Shown: positions 605 through 54,400 of the stretch, piece after piece
Numbering within the stretch: the stretch's first letter is position 1
How the letters are laid out: every line of letters begins with the position of its first letter
Assembly: GCA_977018835.1 (NCBI GenBank)
Contig: OZ361256.1
Span: forward strand, 1,922,001-1,986,000
DNA from: Minutocellus sp. GHC0000111
Taxonomy: Eukaryota
Direction: 5' to 3'
DNA: 64,000 bases
Program-made: the position numbers and the translations under genes
Notes under the pieces: generated by a model
What the model was told of the DNA's origin: nothing
The model's database searches: none
What the model saw: only the letters and a program-made list of their open reading frames with translations

Positions 605-1162
605 CTGCTCCCTCCTCCTTCGAAGTGCGGCCGCCGCGGGATATCGCCGGCCACGGCCACCCGTTGCCGCTGCTCTGCCGCCGCATTCATATCGTCCGCA
701 ACTTTCGCGTGGCTGTATTATGATATGTGATGGACGCGATGAGGCAGGCCGACGGACGAATTCGAGCGAACGAGAATTTGCTGTACAGTGAGCACGCACG
801 GGAGATTTGGCGGGTGCGCCAAAAGACGTCAAGCAGAGCGAGGAGTTTCCACGCCACGCTGATGAAGAGAGACTAGAATACGAAGAGAGCTCTCCAACGT
901 CTACGTATCTAGCTAGCAACTGAACAAAGATAGCAAGGAAGAAAGGTGTTCCCTTCACAGAAGATACGCAGAAGAGGTCAATCAACTCAGCGCGTTGCTT
1001 CGAGAAGAACACATGCTGATATGCTGATGTGTTGGGACAGGCCCTTTCTGTCGGCATGACGATAAATTCTCGTAATGGAAACTGTTATCGTTCTTCCTCC
1101 GGGTTCTAAATCCATCGTTCGGGAGATTGGTATCGACCGAAATTGCGCGGTACTTCAACTTA

Positions 1163-1210
1163 CGAGGTCCGGGACAGCAATTTCGGGGACCCGGTTTTTT
1201 GGGTCTTTGG
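1163..1210 (+). repeat. left terminal inverted repeat of mariner element 1
   Basis: Matches reverse complement of 6080-6126 with about 5 substitutions and 1 indel. Confidence 0.92.
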
Positions 1211-1363
1211 ACTTTCCGACACGGCGGTTTGCGCGCACCTTAAAAAACACGCGGCAAAGCAAGCAAATCAAAACACATCCGTCAACAACCGACCTCCAAG
1301 CAATTACCACAAATAGACTGGGCAACTTCTGCCGACTGGCGCTTCAAGAAGCTTCCATACTCA

Positions 1364-2508
1364 TGGATACTCCAAAGGGACACATCTTCAGTCCACCGCG
1401 TCTCCACCGAAACGCGCCGAGGCGACTGCATTCAGCCCCTCGCGCCATGAGAAGAAGGAAACTTCCAACGAAACGCCGGAACATCCGCGGTATCGAGAGA
1501 ACAAGGACAACGATGACGAGGAGGACAACCAAGGGGGGTCCCACCGGCATCGTCAGACCTCACATCTCCTCGTGTGTTGAAATATATCGACGCGAGTACA
1601 ACGAAGAGGATGGCTTCGCCGCCGAACAAGCCCAAGCAAGGAAGTACTTGCATCATGACATATTGCGTGCCGACTTTCGCGGTACCGCTACCGTTTCATC
1701 TCATTCTGATGAAGATGATTCATTCTCAGAGATGAGCATAGCAACCGCCGACGCAAAGCCAAGCGGCGAGAGGAGAAAGCCCGTGAGCTCATTCGACCTT
1801 CCCTCCGCCACGCCCATGGTAACAAGTCCAATGTCAGTTCATACTCAGTATGCTCTTACCCCAAGCCGCTCATGCCCGTCGTTCAGCAACCTTCAATTGT
1901 CATCCCCTACCATCTTGGAGCCCTTGCCTCCAACCGAACCAACCGAACGACAGATTGAACGAGAGGTTGAGGAACATCGGAGGCTTGCGTGCTTTTTGAC
2001 GTACGGAGAAGCACCACTACCACAAGATATAAAGAACTACAAGTCACCCACATGTAGTCAGAGGCCCGAACCAAGAAGAAAAGAGAAAGGGGTCTACCTC
2101 CCCTTCAAACAAGTTCCTGGTTGGGGTAGCGAGGTCGCGGTCACCACAGTGCTAGGCATGATCGAAGTCGATCGCCAAGTAAGAGAGGGTCGTGGTGCCT
2201 ACCCGAAAGGGTGGAGAAGCAGAGAACTCGGATTGTATGATAACAAGACAATAGAATTCTCTATTGCATTATCTACTGACAAGATTGCATTAGATGCATA
2301 TAAGTTGGGATATGAGGATGGGAGTAAACAACCAACTGCTCACCCTGCCCTCACTGACAATAAACTTGCCGATGCATATGGTGTGAAGCGCGGAAAGATT
2401 CGTCAGTCCCTCCACGCTGTGTGGCTTTCTAATGATCATAAGAAGGCCAAGGAGGCAAAAAAGAATACCGGTAGAAATAGAAGAACAAAGAAGCCCACCG
2501 TGATATAA
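1364..2508 (+). CDS. uninterrupted cargo ORF of unknown function inside mariner element 1
   Basis: About 381 codons from the first ATG inside the TIR (MDTPKG), convergent with the transposase, basic N- and C-termini; the tracked start at 1075 lies outside the TIR. Confidence 0.55.
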
Positions 2509-2605
2509 ACAAACCAATGCTGCTGCATCTTACATGTAGATCTATAAATAATTTGTAGACGTGTAACATTTATTTAATACATGTGTGTAAAGATATCAAT
2601 ACTAT

Positions 2606-5551
2606 CTATTTATTTGAAGGATGACGAGCTGAGGGCTCCATCCCCTTGGCCGTTTCGTTGAAGTCGATCCTAATTCCAGTGTGCAAGTTTTCGTCACCCA
2701 ACCTTCCAACAAACTCATTGCTACCACCGGCCTTAATCACCAGGCCCATTATCCTCCAGTACTGAATGAAGGCCGAAGCAATTTTGCAGTTAGGCATGCT
2801 ATCGTAAACGTCCTCGGCAGTGTCCCAGATCTGGTCGGTGGAAGTGACGGAGGTGCCTACCATTTTTCGTGCCCATTCCGAGTGCCGCCGGCTCATCGCG
2901 GGGAACACGCTCAAGTCAAGGACGTTGGCGTGAGGCATCTGCGGTGCCTGTGGCTGCCACGTCCAGCCTTGCTCAGCACAGAAGTTAGTAACAAATTGCG
3001 TGAAGGTTCCGTCCTCGTGAGGCCCGGCCTGGTCGCCCTGGATAATAACATGGCAATCTTCGTATTGCTTGCCCGGACCGACAAGGTTAAGAATCGCTGG
3101 GAAAATAGTCTCCTTGAATACGAGGAGCAAAGAGCATTTCGGATCCTTTTTGGTGCCTTCGTTCGATCCAGTAACGCAACAATCAACAAGAAACGACTCT
3201 CCTTTCCGGCGAAGAGGTTCCTTTGGTGTCCCATCGGGGTTGGTATTTGGGTACCGCATTGAACCATCAGGCTGTGATGCTGCTTCGTACTGAGCTCGCT
3301 CCGCTATTTTAGGAGCTTGAGCTCGTACCAGTGGCAGTTTTACAACCTCGCACCCACTCTCAAGAGAACCGTCAAAGACAGCGGCAACAAATGCAATGGC
3401 CATGACCTTGTTGATGTGGCTCCTGTGAAAGGCCGCGTAATCTCGCTTTTTCACGCCGATTTCCTAGCAAGCCTTCGCAAAAGCTCGGAGGACGAGACCC
3501 CAGAACCATTTCTCATCGTAATGCACGAGGAGAACTCGCTTCTTTCCATTCGGTAAATTGCCGTTCTCATCCCGAATGTTCCAGAAATTCCGCACGAGCT
3601 GAGCAAAGGCCAGATGCTTAGCTTTTTGAGCCTCCGACAGGCGCGGTGCCAGCCGCTCCTTGTAGAAAGTGAAGGTGTCGAATGACTTGAGCCACCGCTC
3701 AATCGTCTTGTGCGAGCACCACAGACCAATGTCCTGCTCCAAACCACGGAACGATCGCTGAGGATTGCTGGAAAGGGCCGCAACAATGTCGTTCTGTATG
3801 TGCCTAGGTGCGGCTGCCTTGCCAAGTGCTCCCGCCTCTTCAGCTCCCACAGCTGCTTGTCATCGTCGTCGCTGATGGTGTCGTGCTCGGTCAGGTACGT
3901 TTTGAGCAACTCATTGTCAGCCTCCTTCGACACAGAATCATAGCAGTCTTCCTTTGCCTCTCTGCACTTATTGATTGCATGCAGGCGCTTAGCAGCAAAG
4001 TACTGCTCAGCCGTCTTGTAATTGTCAATGGTAGACTTTGGCCGAACCGACGAATCCTTGGGAGCGGGGTGACAAATGCAAGCTCGGCCTGATCTGCTGG
4101 CATGCCCCGGGCAATGACATTCTTCCGAGACTCGTTCTGGATGTCTCGCAGCCCATTCTTACCCTTCCCCCACGCTCTGCAGAGCTCACGAATAGTGACC
4201 CTCCCATCCGACTGAAACTTCTGCGATGAGCTGTTCCTACTTGAGTGCTGCGTCCCTCCGGTGCTCTTCAAATGCACTTCCAGAAGCAATCTCTGGGCAA
4301 AAAGCATGCTCTTGTCCTCGTCGTTCAATCCCTTCTTGCCTTTGGTTGCTCGACTCGCCTCCTTTCGAAGACATCCATCCTTCTTCCTGTATCGCATGCC
4401 ATGCAAAAGCTTTCCGACAAGAGTCTCCATCGGACTGCCATCGCTCTTTGCACGCTTGTTGGCACCGGCGCTGTCAACACTATCCATCCCCGCCTGAGCA
4501 GCTGCTGTCCGTTTGCGCCTGTCCTTGGCAATTGAATCGGTGTTGAGGCCGAGTGGGATCGGGGTGATGGCCTTGAGAGGCACATTCTTGTGCATCATGC
4601 CACCAAAAGGCTTCTCATGCTGGACATCGCAAAGAGCACCTCCACCGACACCTCGACTGACCACAACAAATCCCTCACCCTCAGGCCGATTCATGTTGGG
4701 ACTGAAGTCGGCAGACACACAAGGACATGTTCCCCAGCACTGATGGCAGGTCGCATGTTGTCTTCCATTCTCATTGCTTTCTTGCGTTCGGGTGGTGCAT
4801 CCGTCGGCATCCTGTGCGACCGAAGATGTTCACGCATTTGCACCCTCTGCTCCAAATGACGCATCGCCTCCTTCATTTTGTTCCTTTTCTTCTCGGCATC
4901 GACCATGGCCTTTTCATCCTTCCGCTTTTCTCGTTTCAAGGTGTCCCTTAGCCCTTTCAAAGCCTCCTCTGCAGCTTTGTGTTGCGCTTCGGCCTCAACC
5001 AGCAGCACATCCAAATTCTCCTCGGTCGATCCACCAGAATTGGCGGTGCCGGTAGCAGAAACACCGACACTGCTGGCAGGATTGCCAGACTCTTCACTGT
5101 TGCCGCTTCCATCCACCACCATGGACTCGGCGATGCCCCCAGCTTCGACATTGTCATCACCAGGACGAGCAGCGACACCAGCATTGTCCTCGACCGTCGG
5201 CTCAGGGCTGGCATCGGCGTTATTGGATGACGAATTGCGCCGAGCAACTTGAATTTGAGAAATCGGCACATCTTGTGCCGGATCAGGACCGGTCTGGCTC
5301 GGACAGCACAGCTCCTCCTCTCGGGCTTGCTCCATGACATCCTGCTGTTTCTGAAGTGAGAGGCCCGCCCATGCCCGGTTCGCTATGGTCTGGATCATCC
5401 CAGGAGACTTGCCACGAATCGTAGAGGCATCGATGGTGCCGCTCCGATGGACAAAATGATCAAAGCATGGGATGGAGCTGCCGGACCGACGGGAGCGGCG
5501 ACATGCTGGCGCATCAGCTGCGGTGGCAGCAGTAGCAACAGCCATTTGCAT
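2606..5551 (-). pseudogene. disrupted mariner-family transposase (DD38D)
   Basis: VHYDEKWF, IIQGDQAGPH and QAPQMPHANVLDLSVF motifs with 38 residues between D2 and D3; frameshifts near 4720, 3935 and 3805; in-frame TAG at 3464-3466. Confidence 0.88.
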
Positions 5552-6079
5552 TAATATGGTGTTGGATGCAGTATTTTGTGGCAGTAGAGCAACAGTTTGT
5601 ATGTCGGGTGGGTTGGAAATGAGGAAGGTTTCATTGAGTGGCGGGCGCGCCGGGCGGGTGATGATTTTTTTGGCCCGCTCGATTTTGGCGCGGGGTCACC
5701 CGGACCGCACAAGATACGCCATTATGGGGACCATGGAGACCGATATCGGAGCTCAAACCATATGGCTACTTGAATCAATGCATTTGGGAGGTGGTGGTGG
5801 GGTCGGGAGGTGGAGGAGGTGACCGGTTGTCATCGGAAAAACTGGCAGAAGTCGGGAGGGGCGATGGATGGGGGTGAATCGGCCAGACGCTGGCATGGGA
5901 AGATGAAATCGATATCTCCGAGTCGGTCCAAGGTCAAGGACCAACCCGTTCTGGAGATACCACGCTTATCCCTTGCGTGAAGCGGATGCCGTCGGCACTG
6001 CCGTCACCGCCACCTTGAAGACAGGACGACAGCATGCTGCTTGCTGCGTGCGTTTGTGCTGATTTTTATGAGATTTTGC

Positions 6080-6126
6080 CCAAAGACCCGAAAACCGGGT
6101 CCCTGAAACTGCTGTCCGCGACCTCG
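6080..6126 (-). repeat. right terminal inverted repeat of mariner element 1
   Basis: ccaaagacccgaaaaccgggtccctgaaactgctgtccgcgacctcg followed by TA. Confidence 0.92.
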
Positions 6127-6362
6127 TACGCATCTGCTTGAAGTCTGGTGCTGGATTTTTTCGATCGATTGCGTTCATTCATTGACTTGTTGCGTTCATT
6201 CCATACCATCCACCGTCGGCTTGCTACTATTCAATTGCATCGACGGATATCTTCATCGATACGATACAAGGAGTTATTGATATCGCTTTGTGCAGAAAGA
6301 ATCGAACTGCAGATCCAACCAATCATCAGCTTCACATCAGCCTCATCATCAATCAATCAATC

Positions 6363-8530
6363 ATGCCATCGTCGTCGTACAGATCTCTGGCGCTGGCCGT
6401 ACTGCTCGGCGGGAGCATGTCCATGTCGGCCTGCCATGCCTTTGTCGGAAGCAGCAACGCTATGAACAATAACCATAAGTCGTCCGCGGCCGGCACCAGC
6501 CTCAACGCCTTTGCCCCGCCTCCCATGATCATCGGCCCGATGCTAAAAAAGATGCGCGAGGAAAAGGCCAAGAAGAACATGCCTTTGGCCTCCGACGAGG
6601 AGCGCGGCACCGAGGCGCCGGGCCTGCGCGTCGGGAAGGGGGCGTGGAAGTGGCCTCCGGTGTGGCCGTACGACCGCGAAATGTTCATGCGGACCGAGGA
6701 GATCGTCAGCAAGCAGCAGCAGAACGCGCTGCAGGGGATGCTCGGCGGGGCCGCCGCCGGGGGGACGTTGCCCGACCTGCCGGATTCGCCCGATGCTGCC
6801 GCTGCCGCCAAGCTCGACCTGAAGCAGTACTGGTCCGAAAAGGCGGGTGTTGCCACCGACATCAACGAGGAAGCTGCCAACAAGTTGAGGAGGTGAGTTC
6901 GTTAGTTCTGCAAGAGTCAGTGATGTGGAGAGAGAGTATCATATTCCTACATGATTACGATGCCTCTGCTTTATATCAAACTGATATGATATCTTGGTTT
7001 TGCCTACAATTCGACTTACTCATTGTGAACAATCTGACTTATATCTGATCTATCCCAATATCATTTCTTCCATTATTTTTATTGCACAGCCACTACTCCT
7101 ACTACCTGCGAGATGGAATGTCGGTACTGGAATTCGGTGCCGCCGAGAACTCCTACCTGCCCGAGGGCCTCAAGCTGGGAAGACACGTAGGTGTGGGACT
7201 ATCGGTGGACCAAATGGCCCAGAACCAGGCTATCACGGAAACGTTGGAGGTCGATCTGAACAAGGTGGTGGCCGAAAATGGGGTCGATTCCGACGAGTTG
7301 CGGGCACTGGGAGCCAATACCTTCGATGTCATCCTCATGGCCAACACATTGGACTTCCTGGAAAATCCTCGGGAGGTCTTCAAATCGGCGTGGCAGCTGC
7401 TCAAGCCCGGTGGTATCATGATGGTGGCCTTCACGTCGAGAGATGCCTACACCGACAAGTTTGGCAAGGCCCAGACCAAGATGTGGTCCTCCTTCAACGA
7501 CGATCAGCACATGTGGATTGCCGGCTCGTGCTTCCAGTTCAGTGCCGGAGATGGATGGGAGGGCCTCAAGGGATTCGATATTTCCCCCGAGGGTGTCAAG
7601 ATGGACGATGGCAAGTCCCCGCTGTCCAAGCTCTTTGACCAGAGCAAGGGAATGCCCATGTATGTCGTTCAGGCGCGGAAGGGAGTGCAGGACGAGTCCA
7701 TCGACGAGAACGATCCTGAAAAGTCCATCCGATCCAAGATGTGGATGCTCCCCACCATGGAGGAGAGAGACAAGACTTTGGTCGCTCCACGATTGGCCCG
7801 ATCTTTCAAGGCAGCAAAGACCGAGGAGGAGAAGCGTTTGATCGGTGAACATGTTGATACTCTGCCGACGATTTATGAATCGCTGGTGAAGATGGACCAA
7901 TTTGCCTTTACTTTTGGTATGCAGGCACAACTCGCTGCCGACCTTGCCAGAGATCCCGGCTTTACTACCAACGAGGAACAAATACGCTCCTTGAAGGAGG
8001 GCCTTGGCTTGCGAACGCCCGGCGATGATTTCTGGATGCCGGTGGGAACTCTCACTGCCAATATGGACCCAGAGGACAAGGTCAACCTACTCTCACACAT
8101 TGTGCCTCGATTCGGAAGTGAAAATGCAGAGCAAGAGGCTGCCTTGCAAACATTCGTTGCTGCCCTGAAGCCAACTTTCGCCACAATCAAAGCCAAATGT
8201 TCCGACATGGGCGAGGGAGATGTCCAGCTTTTGGGTACCGAGCTCCTTGCAGCCGAGATATTGCAGCCTGGTCGAAGTACTCGGGAGGAATTCGCGGCGT
8301 GGCTCGGTGCCATGTCGGACGCTGATTTGAAGGCCTACCTCGGTCGCCGAAAGGCCTTCAAGGAAGATGCGATGGCCGAGATGAAGGCCATGCAAGACGA
8401 GCGTGCAGCGGAGGAGGCCCGCGTGGAAGCCGAGAAGGAGAAGATGATGGAGCAGGCTCGAAAGGCGAGAGAAGAGAGAACAATGCGATTCAATCCGGAG
8501 AACGGAAAGATGGAGGAGATCAAGAAGTGA
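6363..8530 (+). CDS. plastid-targeted SAM-dependent methyltransferase-like protein; join(6363..6892,7090..8530)
   Basis: Signal peptide ending CHA-F; GTGAGT..CAG intron restores the frame; VLEFGA, FDVIL and LLKPGG methyltransferase motifs. Confidence 0.8.
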
Positions 8531-20368: not shown

Positions 20369-20586
20369 AACGGTTCCGAAGCCAATGTGAATTCATAGCT
20401 CATATTCCTTCATAACATATTTGTGTGGCGTGCGGTAGGGCTATGCTCGCATCTCATCACTAACCTCCGCAGCAACGATGTGCCACTAGATCTAGTAGAT
20501 GTCAAACGAATAGCAAATAAATAATATCTGAAGACTGAATAGACATCTACCTACATGTATATATATATATATATATAATATATATA

Positions 20587-21118
20587 TGCTAGTCCCAAAA
20601 TGCGCACTGTCCCAGTTCGCGAACTGGGATCCCAGTTTGCGAACTAGGATTTATTTATCCCAGTTTGGAAACTGGGATCATAGGCACAATCTCAGTTTGC
20701 AAACTGGGATCAATCGAGAAATAATGAATATTTAGCATGGATGATATCGCCTTTGCTTCTCCTCGCTTCATTTTTTAATTTGCAAATTCAAGATGTGATG
20801 CACAGTGCAACTTGTATTGTAGATAGATCTACCAGTACATGTACAAAATAGTCGTTGTGCATGAGCCAACACCGGCGCGGCAGTTACCATTCTGGCACTT
20901 GCCGAGAACACCAGTTTCCAAACTGGTATTCATTTTTGTTCCAGTTCGCGAACTCGTCTGGTTCCCAAATTCGGATTGGCGTGTTTATCTCAGTTTCCAT
21001 TCTGGTAGTATCAGTGCGCAAACTGAGATCCTAGTTTGGGAACTGGGGCCCAGTGCGCAAACTGGGATAAATGAATCCCAGTTCGCGAACTGGGACAGTG
21101 CGCATTTTGGGACTAACA
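20587..21118. mobile_element. MITE / non-autonomous TIR element inserted in a (TA)n tract
   Basis: Perfect 41-bp inverted repeats at 20590-20630 and 21075-21115, extendable by 3 bp with 1 mismatch; flanked by TATA; no credible coding capacity. Confidence 0.92.
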
Positions 21119-21251
21119 TATACATTAACGGTGATTACAATTGCATCTACTTATAATTCGACACATGGCAACCACGTGATTGAAGTTTTAACAATAGCAT
21201 GCGAAATCAATTCTGATAGGGTATTTTCCACTGCAACTATCGCTATCTCAA

Positions 21252-25461: not shown

Positions 25462-26811
25462 TCAGCACGCACCGATGCTCTGCATGAGGGCCCGGTCGTG
25501 CTGCAGCGCCACGGCCTCCATGCTGCGGTATTCCTCGACCATTTCGGCAATTTCGGCCGCCGCCTCCCTCCCGTCCCGCTCGATCTCGGCCTCGAGGGCC
25601 CGCACCTCGGCCTCGCTGGCCTCGACGCGGGCCATGCCGTCCCGCCGGCCCTTCTCCACCAGCAGCAGCTCCTGCTGAGCTCTGTCGAGCTCTTCCTGGG
25701 CGGGATCGAGCTTGGTCCGGCCCTGCTTCCTCGTATGATCGATGGACTCCTCCACACGGGCAATCTGTTTGGTGCAGTCCTGGATCTGATCCTCCAGGTC
25801 GGCCGTCTGCGCCGTCAAAGCATCCATCGCCGACGCCTTGTCCTTGATCTCCGTCGCCAGGCCCTCGTATTTGGTCTTTTCGGATTCAATATCCGTCAAA
25901 ACGCCTGCGGCTTCGACCACCACGGTATGCGCCCGTGCCACGTTGGCAATCTTGCGCTGGAGGGACTGCACCTCTTTCTCGGCCTGGGCCATGTCGGCCT
26001 TCTCCTGTTCGAGGCTTTCCATCATCTGGTTCATCTCGGACTTGACCCGGGCGGGACTGCTCACGACCCTGGACGACAGCTGTCGTTCCTCCACCTGGGC
26101 CTCCTCCAGTTCGATCGCCACCGTGGCCAGCGCATCCTTGAGCTCGTTGGCCTTCTTCTTGAGGTTGGTCGACTCCTGCCGGATGGTCGACTGGACCTTG
26201 TTCTGCTGGGCGATCTCGGTCTCGATCTCGGCGCAGTCGGCCTCGACCTCGGCGATCTCCTGCTGACATTCGTCGGTGGCGGCACGGGCATCGTCGAGAT
26301 CGTGGAGGAGGTTGGCATGGTCCGTCTGGGCCGATTGCAGTTCGGCCAATATCTCCTGCCGTTGCTGCGTCAGCTCTTCGTAGATGGGCATCCGCTCCTC
26401 CCGGAAGCGGGCAAAGTTGATGGCACCCGACAACTGGCGACGGAATCGCTTGGAGGTCGGGGCATTGAGGTCCTTCCAACCAAAGTCGTGCAGGCCGCAG
26501 ATCTTCATGAACTTCATGCACTTTTTGAGAAACTTGAGCTCCGAGATGGATTCGACGTGCAATTCCGGGTGGGGCAGGGATGCCTTCTTGGCCAGGACGG
26601 TGGCCGACGGGTTGCGCAGCTCGTCCTCGGTCACTCCCAATCCGAATTCGATGAGCATCAGAAACACCTCCCGGACTCGATCCTTGTGACGGTTGGGCTC
26701 GGCCAGCTCGTCGGCCGTCAGGGGCACGCCGAGCTCCGACATGCAGTTGATGATGTCGGCATTCTTGAGGAGGGGGAAGGCGAAGGACTGCTGCTGGGCA
26801 GTTAGGTCCAT
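25462..26811 (-). CDS. NUF2: kinetochore protein Nuf2
   Basis: FAFPLL..DI..C..ELG start, DFGWKDLNAP and RQLSGAINFARFREE motifs, long coiled coil. Confidence 0.92.
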   Translation of the reverse strand: MDLTAQQQSFAFPLLKNADIINCMSELGVPLTADELAEPNRHKDRVREVFLMLIEFGLGVTEDELRNPSATVLAKKASLPHPELHVESISELKFLKKCMKFMKICGLHDFGWKDLNAPTSKRFRRQLSGAINFARFREERMPIYEELTQQRQEILAELQSAQTDHANLLHDLDDARAATDECQQEIAEVEADCAEIETEIAQQNKVQSTIRQESTNLKKKANELKDALATVAIELEEAQVEERQLSSRVVSSPARVKSEMNQMMESLEQEKADMAQAEKEVQSLQRKIANVARAHTVVVEAAGVLTDIESEKTKYEGLATEIKDKASAMDALTAQTADLEDQIQDCTKQIARVEESIDHTRKQGRTKLDPAQEELDRAQQELLLVEKGRRDGMARVEASEAEVRALEAEIERDGREAAAEIAEMVEEYRSMEAVALQHDRALMQSIGAC

Positions 26812-39547: not shown

Positions 39548-42425
39548 TTATAGCAAATCAATGACTCCATCGTCTTCATCATTTTCATCTATGTCGTCCT
39601 CAATGTCATCATCTTCGCCGGGAGCATCAATTGGCCAGAGTGGTTCACCATCCTCTTCAGCTTCTTCCTCGGCAATTTTTGCGAGACCAGCCTTTTCCCC
39701 GTCTGGTCTCCACAAGATTGTTACCGCCACGACTTCTCTTGATGTTGTTATATATCACTGGAAGTTTTCCAAATACATTGAGAAAGGCCTCTTTTGATGC
39801 GACATTGGCCCATACTTTCATCACAGTCTTGTCAAGAGCATTCGCATCATTCTTCTGACCGCGATGCTCCTTTTCTCGACGGCCGACTGCAAAGACATCC
39901 AGATGCCGAGATCAAGAACATTTGTCTCGGGCGACCGAGGAACCTGCTGGATTATCTCAATCTTATATTTGTTTTTGAGGTCCTCGGTGTACTTCTCAAC
40001 TGCTTCATTGGACCCATGACCGCCGGCATTGTCCATCACAAGATATGTAACATCAGACTCCTGAATATTTTTTGTGGATCCCACTTCACCCAATGATGTG
40101 CGTCTCGAATCGCCTTCCCGACCTCATTCATAGTCTCCAACATCCATTTGGAGTCGCAGCTACAGTCCTTGGTAACCTTATCGCCCCGTTGATGCCGCAC
40201 CCCGAGCTCAAGGTGGTCGTCGATCTCAACCTTCACCTTCTCTCCATTGCTATCAGGAGTGTGTCGCTTGAGACTCGAGATCTTTTGATTGTAGCCAACA
40301 GCGGCATGCTTGCGACTTTTTGCCTGACCGTCGGATTTATAGTCCTCGTATTGAAGTTCCAATCGCTCTGTAACAAACTCAGAAAGGCCGTAGATTTCGG
40401 CAATGTGGTCGCAAAGATGGCCGGCGGTCATGTCAGCACTCTCGTCGTAAATGTCGCGCCAATCTTTGTCATTTTTTAGCGCATCGTTGACCTTAGCATC
40501 TGGAGAGAAATTCTGATTACGCGTAAGCTTTTCCACCTTCTGCTCCCTGGCGACTCTCTTGATCATGATGCGCCCATTGAAATCAACGTCTTTGGTTTCA
40601 TCCTTCATTGGTCGGCCAACAACTCCAAGACACATGACTTTGACAGGGTGTCTTCTGGATCGAATTTTCGGGCTTGCCTCGGAAGCATGGATAGACGCCA
40701 GGTTCGGACTACTTAGTTCTTCGTCAGAAAGTGGCAACATCTTGATCTTTCGTCGCCGAGTAGTAGTGTAAAACCACTTTTCATCAAGATGCGCTACAGG
40801 AATGTTGGGATCGGTCGTGATGTCCTCCCACTTTTCGATCCAATCAAGTCGCTTCCTGCAACATTCGGGGGTGAGCCTCGGCTTCTCGATCGACGACTTC
40901 TCCTTACCGCCTTGCTTTTTCCACCAGCGAAAAAGCTGAAGAAGACGATGGAGACTAATTGTCAGCCTATCTTCATCTGGAGTAGCTGATTTTGCGCTCA
41001 TGCAGTCAGCTAGCTCCTTAAAGGTTGCCATCGCACCCTTCATCCGAGTGGCATGCCGATGCAGCTCGCGGAGACATCCTGGCTCCTTCTCCTCGATCGA
41101 TCATGTCCGTGCATGCCTTCCTTCCACGAACCTCCTTTCTGCCGATGGGATTGCTGATGCCACCAGCAAGGCTTTTGTAGAGCTGGTGTCTCCACTTGTA
41201 AAGCTGAGAACCACCGGTTGACTTGGCATAACCGTGATCGCACGCAACTTGCCGACACGCGGCAGTTGCAATTTGTTGCCGGTCTTCATGCGTGCGAGTT
41301 GGGTCGCCGCATCCCCACCAATCCGCGAGAGCCACGGCGCTGAACCGCACTCTTTCATTCGCCTGCTTTTCTTTTCTGATTGGCATTGGTTCGGTGACGG
41401 TTGCATTGGGACGAGGAGGACGGAGCATGTCATCGTTGGCCATCCGAACAACAAAGTCGAGGCCGAGAGCGACCTTTGCCTGTTCATCAATGTCACTGGA
41501 GGTGGCACAGACAACGGAAGCATCGGCTCCTCCTAAACCTTCATCATTGGGGGAGGCTGCAGCTGCTTCAGTGGCGGAAGTGTCACCAGTTCCCTTCAGC
41601 ATGCTGAGGAGACTTGCTGGCATCCAACCCAGTTTCTTGGCCTCGTCGACTGGTGATTTTGCTCTTGCTTCGCAATGCGCTGACTGTGCCTCCTTTCTGT
41701 GAGCTGACAACCTCTCACCTAGCTTAGCAGCTAAGACAGTCGAGCGCCCAGAGAACAGAACTTCATCGGGATTTCTTTTCTCGTGCACCTTCTGTCCCTC
41801 CGGTCCAGAGAATTTCGGGTGGTTGTCCTCCTTCTTTTTACGCAACCTGTGAGCACAAACACAAAAAGCGCCCTGCGTCTTGTCTTCCCTCTCGGCCGAC
41901 ACGTCGACAAGTGCAACTTCAAACTACAATGCTCCTTGAGATGTTGCTGCACTCCTTCCATTTTTCCTCGTTGTACTGTAGCTCATACTTTCCTCCACCG
42001 ACGGACTTGGAACGCAACAAGTCGGCCTCGATGAAAGCAGGGAGGACGTCTTCCCATTTCTGCCGAGAACCAACACAAATGTCATCTTTGCCGCAGGAAT
42101 CGGGGGTTGCTCTCCACCACAGATCCTTGCCAGCCCTTTGAATGACATCTGCTGCAAGGAGAAAGGCCATGGGGATAGGAGGAGGGGCCGTCCTCTTCTT
42201 CGCCGACGACGGTGACGGTTTGGCGGGGGGGGGGGGGCGAATGAATTTGACCGTGGCCGCTTCTTCGACGTGTTTGCGCTCTCGGCGATGGTGTTTTCGG
42301 CTCAGCTGCCGCCTTTGCCGCCTTCCTGGATGCCTTGGTGTTGCCTCTCTCTTGCTCCCTGAGAACGAAGTTCTGCTGCGTTTGTATTTTTTGGGCGTGG
42401 TCTGGTTGGTCGTCGTCATCGTCAC
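39548..42425 (-). pseudogene. disrupted mariner-family transposase (DD39D), element 2; TIRs not identified
   Basis: AHLDEKWFY, YLVMDNAGGH and QVPRSPETNVLDLGIW motifs with 39 residues between D2 and D3; at least four frameshifts. Confidence 0.88.
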
Positions 42426-42564: not shown

Positions 42565-42837
42565 ATCCACGAGTTGAGGAGTATTTGCGTTCCTCCCGAA
42601 GAGAATATCGACTAACAAAACACGTGGTGGGAAATGAGAAATGGGTGCAAGAATGACCTTTTTTGGGGTTATTGGTATACCCTCTACAAATCCTCTGAAA
42701 CCGAAAGGTAGGCTACTGTGCGGTTACGGTTGGATGGATGAGCCGAGAGCGAGCAAAGCGCCAAGCGAAGCAGGACGACGGACGGACTGGATTCAAACAG
42801 ATTTATTTTTCCGTTGAGCTCGCGACGATTTCCAAAA

Positions 42838-42937
42838 AATGAGACGAAGACTCTGAAAGTCAGTCAGCGCAGCGTGAGCCGAAGGGTAAGAATGAGACGA
42901 AGACTCTGAAAGTCAGTCAGCGCAGCGTGAGCCGAAG
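42838..42937. repeat. 47-bp direct repeat with 6-bp spacer
   Basis: aatgagacgaagactctgaaagtcagtcagcgcagcgtgagccgaag at 42838-42884 and 42891-42937. Confidence 0.95.
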
Positions 42938-42991
42938 TGTGCCGCACTCGATAGGGATTGCTAGACTGCACTCCTGTAGTGAGCAACCAGA

Positions 42992-50000: not shown

Positions 50001-50694
50001 GCACCATGTGGCCTCCATGGCTCCATCTGCTCGTCGCAAAACTTCTGTCCTTCTGCAATTATTTGCCGCTTGAGTAGAACATCCGTCTGTGAATGATGGA
50101 ACGCCATCAAAATAGCGAATGCACCACCTCGAATCTTTATGCCTTTCATATAATTGTCATTTGAGAACGGATTGTTGCCTTGTGCCGATGCCGCAGATGC
50201 AGCACCTGCTGCTGGAGAGTACAATGCAGCGCCTCCTCCCCTACCACCCACAGATTCTATAACGTTGCCACAGTCGGTACAGAGAAAAACTCCAGCCTCG
50301 GCATGCCTCTCAAGATCGGACGAGCCACAATTTGTACAAGAGACACCGCCGATTACATTGCCACGAGAACGTACCTAGGTACTGGACTGGCCGCGGACAC
50401 TGAAGGCATGCCACCACCATTGGACGGCACGTGCCCATCAGGGTAAACATTCTTCACTCCACGGATAACATCCTCACATAGCCTCGTTACCGTTTTTGAC
50501 AAGCTATTAGGGAGTTTGGCGATGCGACCGTTGCTGAAGCAATAGATATCTTTCCTCACGGCAGCAATCTGCCCAGCCCCCTTTTGCCACGTGTGGGCAT
50601 TGCGCTTGCCCTCTCGCAGGCTCTGTTCATATCGCGCCTCGAGGGCAGCGACCAAATCTTCGTTCCATACCCGGACATCTTTTCGTTTGGGCAT
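47027..50694 (-). pseudogene. MUS81: MUS81-like crossover-junction endonuclease with 8-bp frameshift (50374-50381) and in-frame TGA (49598-49600)
   Basis: N-terminal helical/HhH-like region, winged helix (RGGAFAILMA..AWSGI.TL..NLI..FTLT.DG), ERCC4 core (IDNRE, GDF, VERKRANDL, LMIE). Confidence 0.8.
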
Positions 50695-51041: not shown

Positions 51042-51404
51042 GGTACCTAGGTACCTAGGTACATGTACTAGCTAGTACATGTAACTACTTTCTTCGCTTC
51101 CCATCTACTGATCTACTGATTATGTCGATCCTATAAACGTCTATGTAGAAAATTGTTATACATGTAAGTACCGGTAGGAATGGAATACATGTACATGTAG
51201 GAATCCTATGTTTAGAGAGCCAGCTGCGTACGAGTGTGTGCCTAGGTACACTGCCGGGACCTAGCTAGGTAGCCGAAAAGTACACGTGTAGCACATAATA
51301 TGTAGTCTCGTAGTCTATTCGTAGCTGCTTAGTCTAGCTAGCTGTTAGAGTAGATCTCTTGTAGACTCTAGCTAGCTGGCTTGTATACATGTACCGATAG
51401 TACC
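51042..51404. repeat. intergenic tract of nested TA-flanked palindromes (putative Tc1/mariner excision footprints)
   Basis: TA-CCTAGG-TA-CCTAGG-TA-CATG-TA-C-TA-GC-TA-G-TA-CATG-TA, then further TACATGTA, TACCGGTA, TACACGTGTA and TAGCTA. Confidence 0.75.
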
Positions 51405-51431: not shown

Positions 51432-54400
51432 CTATGCAATGACCTGCTCATCAAGTCCATCAGCGAATCCCAATAGCCTTGTGGCACGCGTCGTCAAGCT
51501 ATTGGTGACTGTTTCGTGATCTTGTGGGACAAGGGTACTAGTACCAGTCGAAAATGTGCTGTTACTTTCCCCACACGGTGTAGTACTCCTCGATGACAGC
51601 ATTGGTGATCTCGACTTGTACAGCCTTGGTTGGATAATAGCATGCCCTGCACTAATATCCACTAAAGACCTCCAAAGCGCATCACTATCCAAAATGAGCA
51701 GTGCTCGAACTACCCCTTCGGCGACATCGCCAACTTCTCCATCATCTGCCAATAGAGGCAGTATCAGCGTTCCCATTGACGAAACCAGACCAACTAAGCC
51801 AGAACCAAGTACTTTTGGCTGGAAGCACTGTGCAATGCAACGAAGCATTGCAATGATCGACAAAGTATTTTCGCAGTGGTTGGCACCTTCAATGGCTCTC
51901 CTGGACGAAGAAATTCGTTTACTTTGGCCTCTCGCCCGTCGTTCTCGCAGCATTATTTCGTGGCCAATCAATTCTGCAATAATCGGCCAGACATCAGATT
52001 CGAATCTGCTTGTCATGAAATCACCAGATAGTTCGCACACACATCCAATGAGCTCGAAAAGTCCGGCAATGTATACTTTCTCATGGCCCCTGTCTTGTGG
52101 TTGTGATGCTGCCAAGATGAGCATACGTGCAGCGGCCTCACTATCCTTGGCTCGAAACCGTTGAGAAATGATCTTGAGTTGTTGATGAATAGACGGCCAT
52201 ATGCTGCTAATCGACATGAAGAGAGCGTTGCCAACGACAGAAGCTTCTTCTCCATCTTGATTGTTCCTTTCCGCCTCTCCGGAATGGGCGAGAAGGTGGA
52301 GCGTAGAAATAATCGTCTTACAGGTAGTCCTCTGCACAATCAAATCAGGCATGGATGAAAGATAGCAGCAACGTGATAACATGCTATTGCAAGTTGCAAT
52401 GACGGAAGCAATCCATGCTGTCTCGCAGATTGAGCCTCCACAGCCTGTCTCGTCGTCCTTGGAAAGGGGACTGCTGTCCTCTATGCCCCGACCGTCGCTG
52501 TTGCTCTCCTTTTTCATTTCGTGGTGCCGGCAAAATCTATCTTCAGACAGCACATCTGTACATGCATATTCATCTTCGTCGTCGCCATGGGAATTATCCT
52601 CTACATCATTGAAGTCTGCCAGCGATGTAAGCCAGGGTTCTTTCACTTCGATTGATGATTTGTCCTCCTCAGCGGTTTCGTCGTCAACTTCGCACGCCTT
52701 ACGTTGAGTATTCGCAATTGCTATTCCGAGGGAGGATGTAGCCGCATCAAAGATTTTTAGAAGACTCAGTGCAGCGTCTCTCTGCGTTCCCGACTTGGTA
52801 TGAATCAAAGAGTCATCATATTCAACCAATACAGCATCAACCAATTCCGTAAGCAAGGATAAATGTGCCACATTGACATTGAAGCCGTCCAACTCCCAGC
52901 TTTTTCCCAGCGATCTGAGCAGATTATCAACTACGCCGGAGCAGAACAAATCCTCGACCAGCCTGCCGGATTGCCGTCGCAGCGATCCTATGATGGAATC
53001 CACAAGATAATCGAAGTGTTTCGCGAGAAATGTGTTGATGTTTGAGCACCCATCGGCTTTTGACAATTGCCCAAGAGTTGCAAGTGCGCTCTGTCGAACA
53101 TGGTGGTGGTGTACAGGTGATGTCTTCTCAACAACGCTGTACAGGATGATTGGAAGGACCTCCTCCAGGAGTCGATGGCTAGCCATCGATTCCTGGAGGA
53201 GGTCGGGGATAACAGCAATAATATCGAGAAGAGAAGAGACGAAGATCGCATTGGCAGAAAGTTCCGACGCCGTAGATGCCGTTGTCAATGCCGACGGCGA
53301 TTCTTCGAGATCTATCGCCCTTCCAGCTGAAGTATACCCGCGACTTAGATGAATTGCGTTGTCAATACTACTAGTGCCTTTCCCAGATGACAAATAGGAG
53401 TGCATCACAAGAGCAGACCTGTCCAAACTTTGAGATTGCGGCACTACATGAACACCAGAGCTCCCTTGGCATGTTGGTAAGGACCAGAGAGGAGACCGTG
53501 CAATTATCGGAAGGATCGACGACACTAGAGATTGGAGGATTCTGTTCCTACTACGACAACGATATCGACCATTGTCGCTGAATGCTGCAGACAGAATTTC
53601 TCCTGCAAGAACAGAAAGGCCAGACCACTCCCCAAGCCGTTGCATTTGACTCTTCCCTGATGAGCTTATATTGTCACTAAGATCTGCAATGCAAGCGTCA
53701 ACAAAAATGGAGCCGTTTCTTGGACCCAGCGCACGGCCGAGCAGCTTTAGCATGTCCATAGTAGCAGAGATTGATGCCTCTTCTCGTAGAAAGGCAAAGA
53801 ATCTAGTCCGACTGGGTGGATTCAGAGATGAATTCATGGAGCCAATTTGCTCGATTAGAGTGCCGTACGATGTTTCAGGTGACAAAGGAAGGGATGTGTG
53901 ATCTAGTTGCAGAAGTTCTGCCAACGCACGCCGGATCACAGATGATACACCCTCGCACGCAAGTGCCGATGCAATATCCATTTGATATCCCGTCTCTCCC
54001 TCTTTACTGCTGGCACTTCCAACCGTTTCATCCAGAGTGACTCGTACATACCCAGAAATCAAACAACAACGCGCCCTCAATTCACTTTCGTGCCCCCTTG
54101 ATGCCAAAGATGGAAGTGCTTTAATCAATTCAACTATTCTCGGAACAAAATTGGCACTCGCCATTTCTTTCCACGTCCCCTCTGTGTGAACCTTTCGATA
54201 CGAACAAAGAGTAGCTCTCGCCATGGTACCTATCGATTCTATATACGCCGTACATGTTTGCAAACAAAAGGGAATCAAATATACATTCAGTATAAATATG
54301 AGAGAGATCGCATCTGTTTCCGGCATGTGTGTATACATGGAAATAGTATGACATCATGGTTCGAACTCACCATCGCTGTCATTCAGCAGGGACAGGCAGC

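Follow-up and report, generated by a model that had tools for sequence, protein, structure and literature searches.

A-to-G-type hypermutation at TA dinucleotides of Tc1/mariner-type transposons in a likely diatom

Two transposon families in a 64,000-nucleotide stretch of DNA from a likely diatom (the window) carry TA changed to TG or CA at a per-site frequency about tenfold that of any other transition. This pattern almost certainly reflects real hypermutation. The process probably acts on mobile DNA and not genome-wide, and it may serve as a genome defence.

The first family is represented by a Tc1/mariner-type element of 4,968 bp at 1161–6128. Its ends are 38-nt inverted repeats, each with a flanking TA (left, 1161–1198, plus strand; right, 6091–6128, minus strand), and the two arms are 89% complementary. 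The element was compared with contigs from four public runs. These come from four studies, and possibly one of the runs is the source of the window itself. Loose contig ends at both borders (1156–1162 on the left, behind 6127–6128 on the right) represent other insertion sites, and a joint from 1164 to 6144 with a single TA, the empty site, occurs in two of the four runs. Contig depth over the element is far above that of its flanks and the flanks of other insertions are present in the four runs, indicating many copies. The TAs that flank this element itself, at 1161 and 6127, are still intact; the removal of Tc1/mariner target sites would be a hypothetical purpose of the editing described below. 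An internally deleted derivative lacking 3572–4876 seems common, as seen in contig joints and in P0001, P0048 and P0050, which join across the gap.

The transposase gene lies at 2606–5548 on the minus strand and is broken. It encodes a Pfam HTH_Tnp_Tc3_2 domain (PF01498, E 3e-8) and the catalytic motifs HYDEKW, QGDQAG and VLDLSV, and a DD38D spacing was read off the sequence; the catalytic piece has no Pfam match. A relative annotated 'transposase [Nitzschia inconspicua]' shares 41% identity. Among more distant relatives, P0018, P0019 and P0025 carry an N-terminal HMG box (PF00505). The intact protein is about 960 aa long, and the two N-terminal ORFs described in an earlier sequence-only reading of the window (the first-pass annotation) are frameshifted parts of this single transposase. 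The window copy is 92–97% identical to an open copy of 999 aa, P0052. It has frameshifts near 4715 and 4065, an 8-bp insertion at 3802–3811 and a nonsense codon at 3464–3466. These indels and the stop differ from those of the other copies in the public-run contigs. With these lesions the window copy is dead. Terminal inverted repeats, TA target duplication, a helix-turn-helix match above the Pfam cut-off and DDE/D motifs place the element in the IS630-Tc1-mariner group. It resembles other diatom members in its TA target duplication, inverted repeats, HTH_Tnp_Tc3_2 domain and DDD catalytic motif, but differs from them in its greatly extended N-terminus and in the convergent ORF that it carries as cargo, and this copy is dead.

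Within the element, editing is heaviest over the transposase 5′ half, at 4081–5400 on the minus strand. The first-pass annotation had counted about nine TpA by hand in these 1,320 bp, and nine is the exact number (GC 0.555, observed/expected 0.14), only one of them in an RTAY context. CpA and TpG are raised, at 1.44 and 1.33 times expectation. The TpA-free run it had seen at 4483–4948 is also real and, at 466 bp, is the longest in the 64 kb. Within this run, positions 4504, 4590, 4664, 4676 and 4738 still read TA in 57–99% of the contig depth of run X1. The host exon sample at 7081–7500, by comparison, has the 11 TpA originally reported. The GC-matched comparison that the annotation had called for points the same way: all 23 non-transposon windows of 1,320 bp with GC 0.53–0.58 hold 19–51 TpA, with observed/expected ratios of 0.30–0.71. 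Intact relatives L001 and L002 have 33 TpA and 18 RTAY in the homologous stretch, against 9 and 1 in the window, a deficit with Poisson P of about 8e-7 for TpA and 3e-7 for RTAY. Since these relatives encode the same protein, composition as the sole cause was rejected.

Composition is nonetheless insufficient as proof on its own, because a host gene at GC 0.62 is nearly as poor in TpA. This coiled-coil gene (25462–26810, minus strand), which resembles the kinetochore gene Nuf2, has 8 TpA in 1,349 bp (observed/expected 0.18). Six of the eight are RTAY, giving a ratio of 0.53 for that context versus 0.06 in 4081–5400. The gene is a caution for composition-based TpA screens. Across 32 metagenome loci we found no whole-locus TpA collapse (observed/expected 0.43–0.89), these being collapsed assemblies that are blind to copy-level editing.

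The substitution spectrum among copies was tabulated by dinucleotide context, as the first-pass annotation had proposed. The sample comprised those 62 of 139 proteins that were at least 88% identical to P0052, with P0052 itself and the window's P0134 among them; it is a subset of the transposase family. Copies were mapped onto the window codons and polarised by the outgroups P0067, P0072, P0070 and P0005. At 55 of the 92 sites that could be scored, TA had changed to TG or CA. Each of the seven remaining transition classes had changed at 3–8% of sites, both for A>G (AA>AG 17/254, CA>CG 18/264, GA>GG 8/311) and for G>A (TG>TA 8/207, AG>AA 6/181, CG>CA 17/207, GG>GA 12/280). There were 32 transversion states, 30 of them singletons. 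Against the pooled other A>G changes the TA excess has an odds ratio of 27 and a Fisher P of 8e-37, a value that is too small given the shared ancestry of the copies. Because of this ancestry and of possible gene conversion, P values overstate the case and counts of sites are safer than counts of copies. A repeat with 79 sequences gave 51 of 86 TA sites changed. The outgroups set the direction for 53 of the 55 changes. With this direction, the odds ratio and a second affected element, the proposal of an A-to-G-type process acting in TpA context on transposon DNA stands.

The protein consequences are concentrated at tyrosine. Of the 21 Tyr columns, 17 contain His or Cys, 12 are tri-allelic for Tyr, His and Cys, and none contains Arg. 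Both His and Cys at one Tyr require two events. The annotation had noted a single Tyr in the two N-terminal ORFs (285 and 276 aa), which is correct, and had offered five His or Cys residues as former tyrosines. Three of these (VQHEKPF, KDGCLRKE and PCFDHF) are Tyr sites, while MHKNV and MRHLEQ have no Tyr in outgroups P0067 and P0072. At edited sites the outgroups have Tyr. Ile columns show Ile, Met and Thr. In the window copy itself, 18 of the 66 codons that could be scored are derived. The Tyr beside the first catalytic Asp is changed in 3 of 15 sequences of the first element and 29 of 45 of the second.

The same signature is present in DNA. Variants within the element in the four runs gave 38 rows, drawn from 40 of the 63 variant rows. 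Thirty-five are transitions, 24 of them between TA and TG or CA, and four more affect the partner base of a TA, TG or CA site. In the comparison with L002 over aa 41–660, 30 of 50 TAs of L002 read CA or TG in the window, and the reverse holds for 6 of 18 window TAs. Over aa 661–997 the exchange is symmetric (11/30 versus 12/30).

Flanking bases strongly affect which TAs change. In the two elements together, RTAY was changed at 62 of 70 sites and YTAR at 1 of 20, with YTAY and RTAR intermediate. Along the first transposase, the proportion of RTAY edited per copy is 0.43 for aa 41–470 and then 0.21 and 0.17 further 3′. Both strands are edited in 31 of the 32 copies with at least four edits. No strand coordination was seen, adjacent edits lying on the same strand in 88 of 184 pairs. 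All four gametes occur at 12 of 23 pairs of neighbouring sites, and the same edits are found on either side of lineage markers unrelated to TA. Different copies have thus acquired edits independently at a shared site, and recombination or conversion could add to the four-gamete count.

One site records both the direction and the timing of editing without any outgroup. The palindrome that the first-pass annotation had seen in altered form at 3800–3811 is present, and it is an 8-bp insertion absent from other copies. All four runs leave out these 8 letters, and the implied majority allele is GTAC. The insertion consists of a duplicated TA around CCTAGG, likely a footprint left when a TA-targeting element excised. 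TG now stands in place of each duplicated TA, and the CTAG in the middle is unchanged. Editing therefore took place in situ, in this copy, after the insertion. Copies of GTACCTAGGTAC outside transposons, at 50371–50382 and 51043–51062, one of them tandem, are unedited. They may represent either footprints of this kind or simple repeats.

The cargo half of the element apparently escaped TpA editing. The convergent cargo ORF (1363–2508, plus strand) retains many TpA, as first reported: 46, with observed/expected ratios of 0.70 for TpA and 1.10 for RTAY. Contigs over 1163–2586 (about 1,420 bp) differ from the window by one letter in X2 and X6, despite 60 TpA and 20 RTAY (from 40 of the 63 variant rows). 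Relative to other copies, the ORF has indels at 1401, 1450 and 1582. It matched no Pfam family, gave no usable Atlas hit and had no match in the 32 metagenome loci. A 62-aa stretch matches the N-terminal part of the distant transposase P0029 at 40%. The ORF could represent a remnant, or else a derived DNA-binding helper.

A second, distantly related and likewise broken Tc1/mariner-type transposase lies at 40036–42400 on the minus strand, with DD39D spacing in its relatives. Its cluster contains at least 275 protein fragments. Among 84 sequences, 55 of 90 TA sites are changed, 13 of 23 Tyr columns are tri-allelic, one contains Arg, and TG>TA is seen at 6 of 168 sites. Other substitution classes affect 1–12% of sites in both elements. 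The interval 41018–41923 of the second element holds no RTAY. A MITE-like element at 20580–21125 (546 bp) has 51-nt terminal arms and internal CCCAGTT..AACTGGG repeats. It is not TpA-depleted (observed/expected 0.70, RTAY 1.12), and short or young elements may escape editing. The window also contains a 48-bp near-perfect hairpin at 53157–53204 and a 53-bp tandem duplication at 42835–42940. Its host genes carry signal-peptide-AF motifs, a type of motif that directs proteins to the plastid. The likely assignment of the host to the diatoms is based on these motifs together with the transposase relatives, such as that of Nitzschia inconspicua.

What could produce this pattern? A host mutator aimed at silenced mobile DNA is likely, and we give an even chance to the leading candidate enzyme class, an adenine deaminase of the TadA/ADAT fold. 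In such a pathway, deamination would turn the A of TpA into inosine, which replication would read as G. A single hit would destroy the TpA, so a site would not be hit twice. Targeting would follow silent chromatin, and a threefold CpG excess in the same copies (CpG>TpG/CpA 35/352 versus other G>A 41/1171) may be a pointer to this, as it suggests methylated, silent DNA. Transposases would undergo slow missense decay (Tyr to His or Cys, Ile to Met, Thr or Val, and Val or Thr to Ala), with no new in-frame stops arising from sense codons. An RNA-edited intermediate cannot be the route because the substrate is the genomic DNA of a DNA transposon. Two observations constrain the proposal. The apparently untouched cargo half and the symmetry of aa 661–997 against L002 are not explained by silent-chromatin targeting of the whole element, and the lack of coordination between strands speaks against a deaminase that acts processively.

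Error-prone repair in silenced DNA could also yield A>G. Pol eta prefers WA, and REV1 inserts dCMP. Mutations could therefore come from Pol eta patches (WA>WG), or from an adenine glycosylase followed by REV1 insertion of C opposite the abasic site. Pol eta and the TadA, ADAT and ADAR deaminases share with the present pattern the A>G change and a preference for a 5′ T or U. The CpG excess in the same copies could seed repair patches, edits lack strand coordination, and there is a mild rise of AA>AG (30/465, 6.5%) over GA>GG (16/560, 2.9%). We nonetheless consider repair an unlikely source. TA exceeds AA about ninefold by sites (60% versus 6–7%), which is steeper than expected of Pol eta, the contrast between RTAY and YTAR is strict, and transversions are few (3 of the 38 rows, from 40 of 63 variant rows).

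Because a TpA step is symmetric, sequence does not distinguish chemistry centred on A from chemistry centred on T. TpA and RTAY are self-complementary and T>C equals A>G. A TET/JBP-type dioxygenase could thus oxidize thymine in the TpA of transposon DNA to 5hmU or 5fU, which would mispair with G and fix T>C. Dinoflagellate TET/JBP enzymes make 5hmU and have been linked to transposon silencing (PMC11572971). The accessible text of that report does not describe mutagenesis, however, and contains no occurrence of TpA, stramenopile or diatom; we regard this route as improbable.

It is also quite doubtful that a genome-wide bias is visible in transposons only for want of purifying selection there. 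TpA is low everywhere (observed/expected 0.58 in the whole window and 0.52 in pooled host ORFs), and the coiled-coil gene described above is an extreme case. But host ORFs keep RTAY (0.87, 217 sites) and are low in YTAR (0.18), a pattern opposite to that of edited DNA. Across the 14 and 6 sequences of two host genes, none of 37 TA sites varies while 24 other transition sites do, a comparison confounded by purifying selection. The cargo half of the first element looks spared, and the non-transposon palindromes at 50371 and 51043 are unedited. Ordinary causes are scarcely credible, even though CpG decay also yields CpA and TpG excess (CpG observed/expected 0.78) and the disordered N-terminal region is low in aromatic residues: RIP read backwards fails because TpA is lost and TG>TA is rare in both elements, CpG decay of Arg codons because the ancestral residue is Tyr and no first-element Tyr column has Arg (the weaker CpG excess being separate), and long-read or assembly error is very unlikely because the same variants occur in contigs of runs from four studies.

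Returning to the adenine deaminase, a wider reading is possible, at somewhat less than an even chance. Diatoms would possess a DNA adenine editor that is still active, is guided by chromatin and rewrites RTAY in cut-and-paste transposons after insertion, an A-to-G counterpart of RIP shared across SAR. Young, high-copy families would be caught half-way, and the cargo gene would escape, perhaps through its expression or through an action against the editor. This kind of process is known from one preprint. Here it is seen in a half-way state, with evidence from copies, from reads and from editing in place. The case for targeted A-to-G editing of genomic DNA in nature has so far rested on that preprint, and copy-by-copy evidence from a second SAR lineage, with DNA transposons as targets, would turn it into a widespread genome defence. 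Direct assays toward the enzyme, possibly a natural DNA adenine editor, are offered by the RTAY rule, by the half-edited state and by the gradient within the element. In such genomes, the ages and consensus sequences of transposons would be distorted.

The first-pass annotation had called the process a reverse RIP. RIP, known from Neurospora and other Pezizomycotina, changes C to T at CpA, creating TpA and stop codons, and depends on repeat pairing in the sexual cycle and on RID. The name holds in that TpA is lost, opposite to RIP, and that dinucleotide-specific hypermutation degrades transposons in place in both cases. Beyond this it is an analogy only, as nothing shows repeat pairing or a sexual-cycle trigger. 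Unlike in RIP, TpA is destroyed here and no in-frame stops arise from sense codons; in the precedent of Bigelowiella natans, moreover, the NCLDV target is single-copy.

In the literature searched, with most subscription journals lying outside the search, we found no diatom report of TpA hypermutation. The accessible texts of a Phaeodactylum mutation-accumulation paper (PMC6604790), of PMC11884799 and of bioRxiv 10.64898/2026.07.24.739820 contain no occurrence of TpA. The annotation's statement that no mechanism of this kind had been described no longer holds, since Mettrop et al. report one in B. natans (bioRxiv 10.64898/2026.01.13.699255). According to the accessible text of that preprint, in which neither diatom nor stramenopile is mentioned, 230 of 231 mutations in two viral inserts were A>G or T>C at TpA and arose de novo. 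The rate was about 1000-fold above background, the process was active in a subset of lines, and an ADAT2-like deaminase was proposed as a candidate. TpA-poor coding sequences were enriched for DDE and RT domains, transposons being inferred there from composition only. The window elements resemble the NCLDV and virophage inserts of B. natans in that each strand shows A>G and T>C changes at TpA, and in the loss of TpA with gain of CpA and TpG. Hypermutation in B. natans is confined to foreign or mobile DNA; for the window, the corresponding evidence is composition and the 37 invariant host TA sites, in genes under selection. B. natans is a rhizarian with de novo mutation in single-copy viral inserts, whereas the window comes from a likely diatom with multi-copy cut-and-paste transposons and polymorphism from copy to copy. 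Set beside that system, the preference for RTAY over YTAR and the gradient within the element are features of the window elements.
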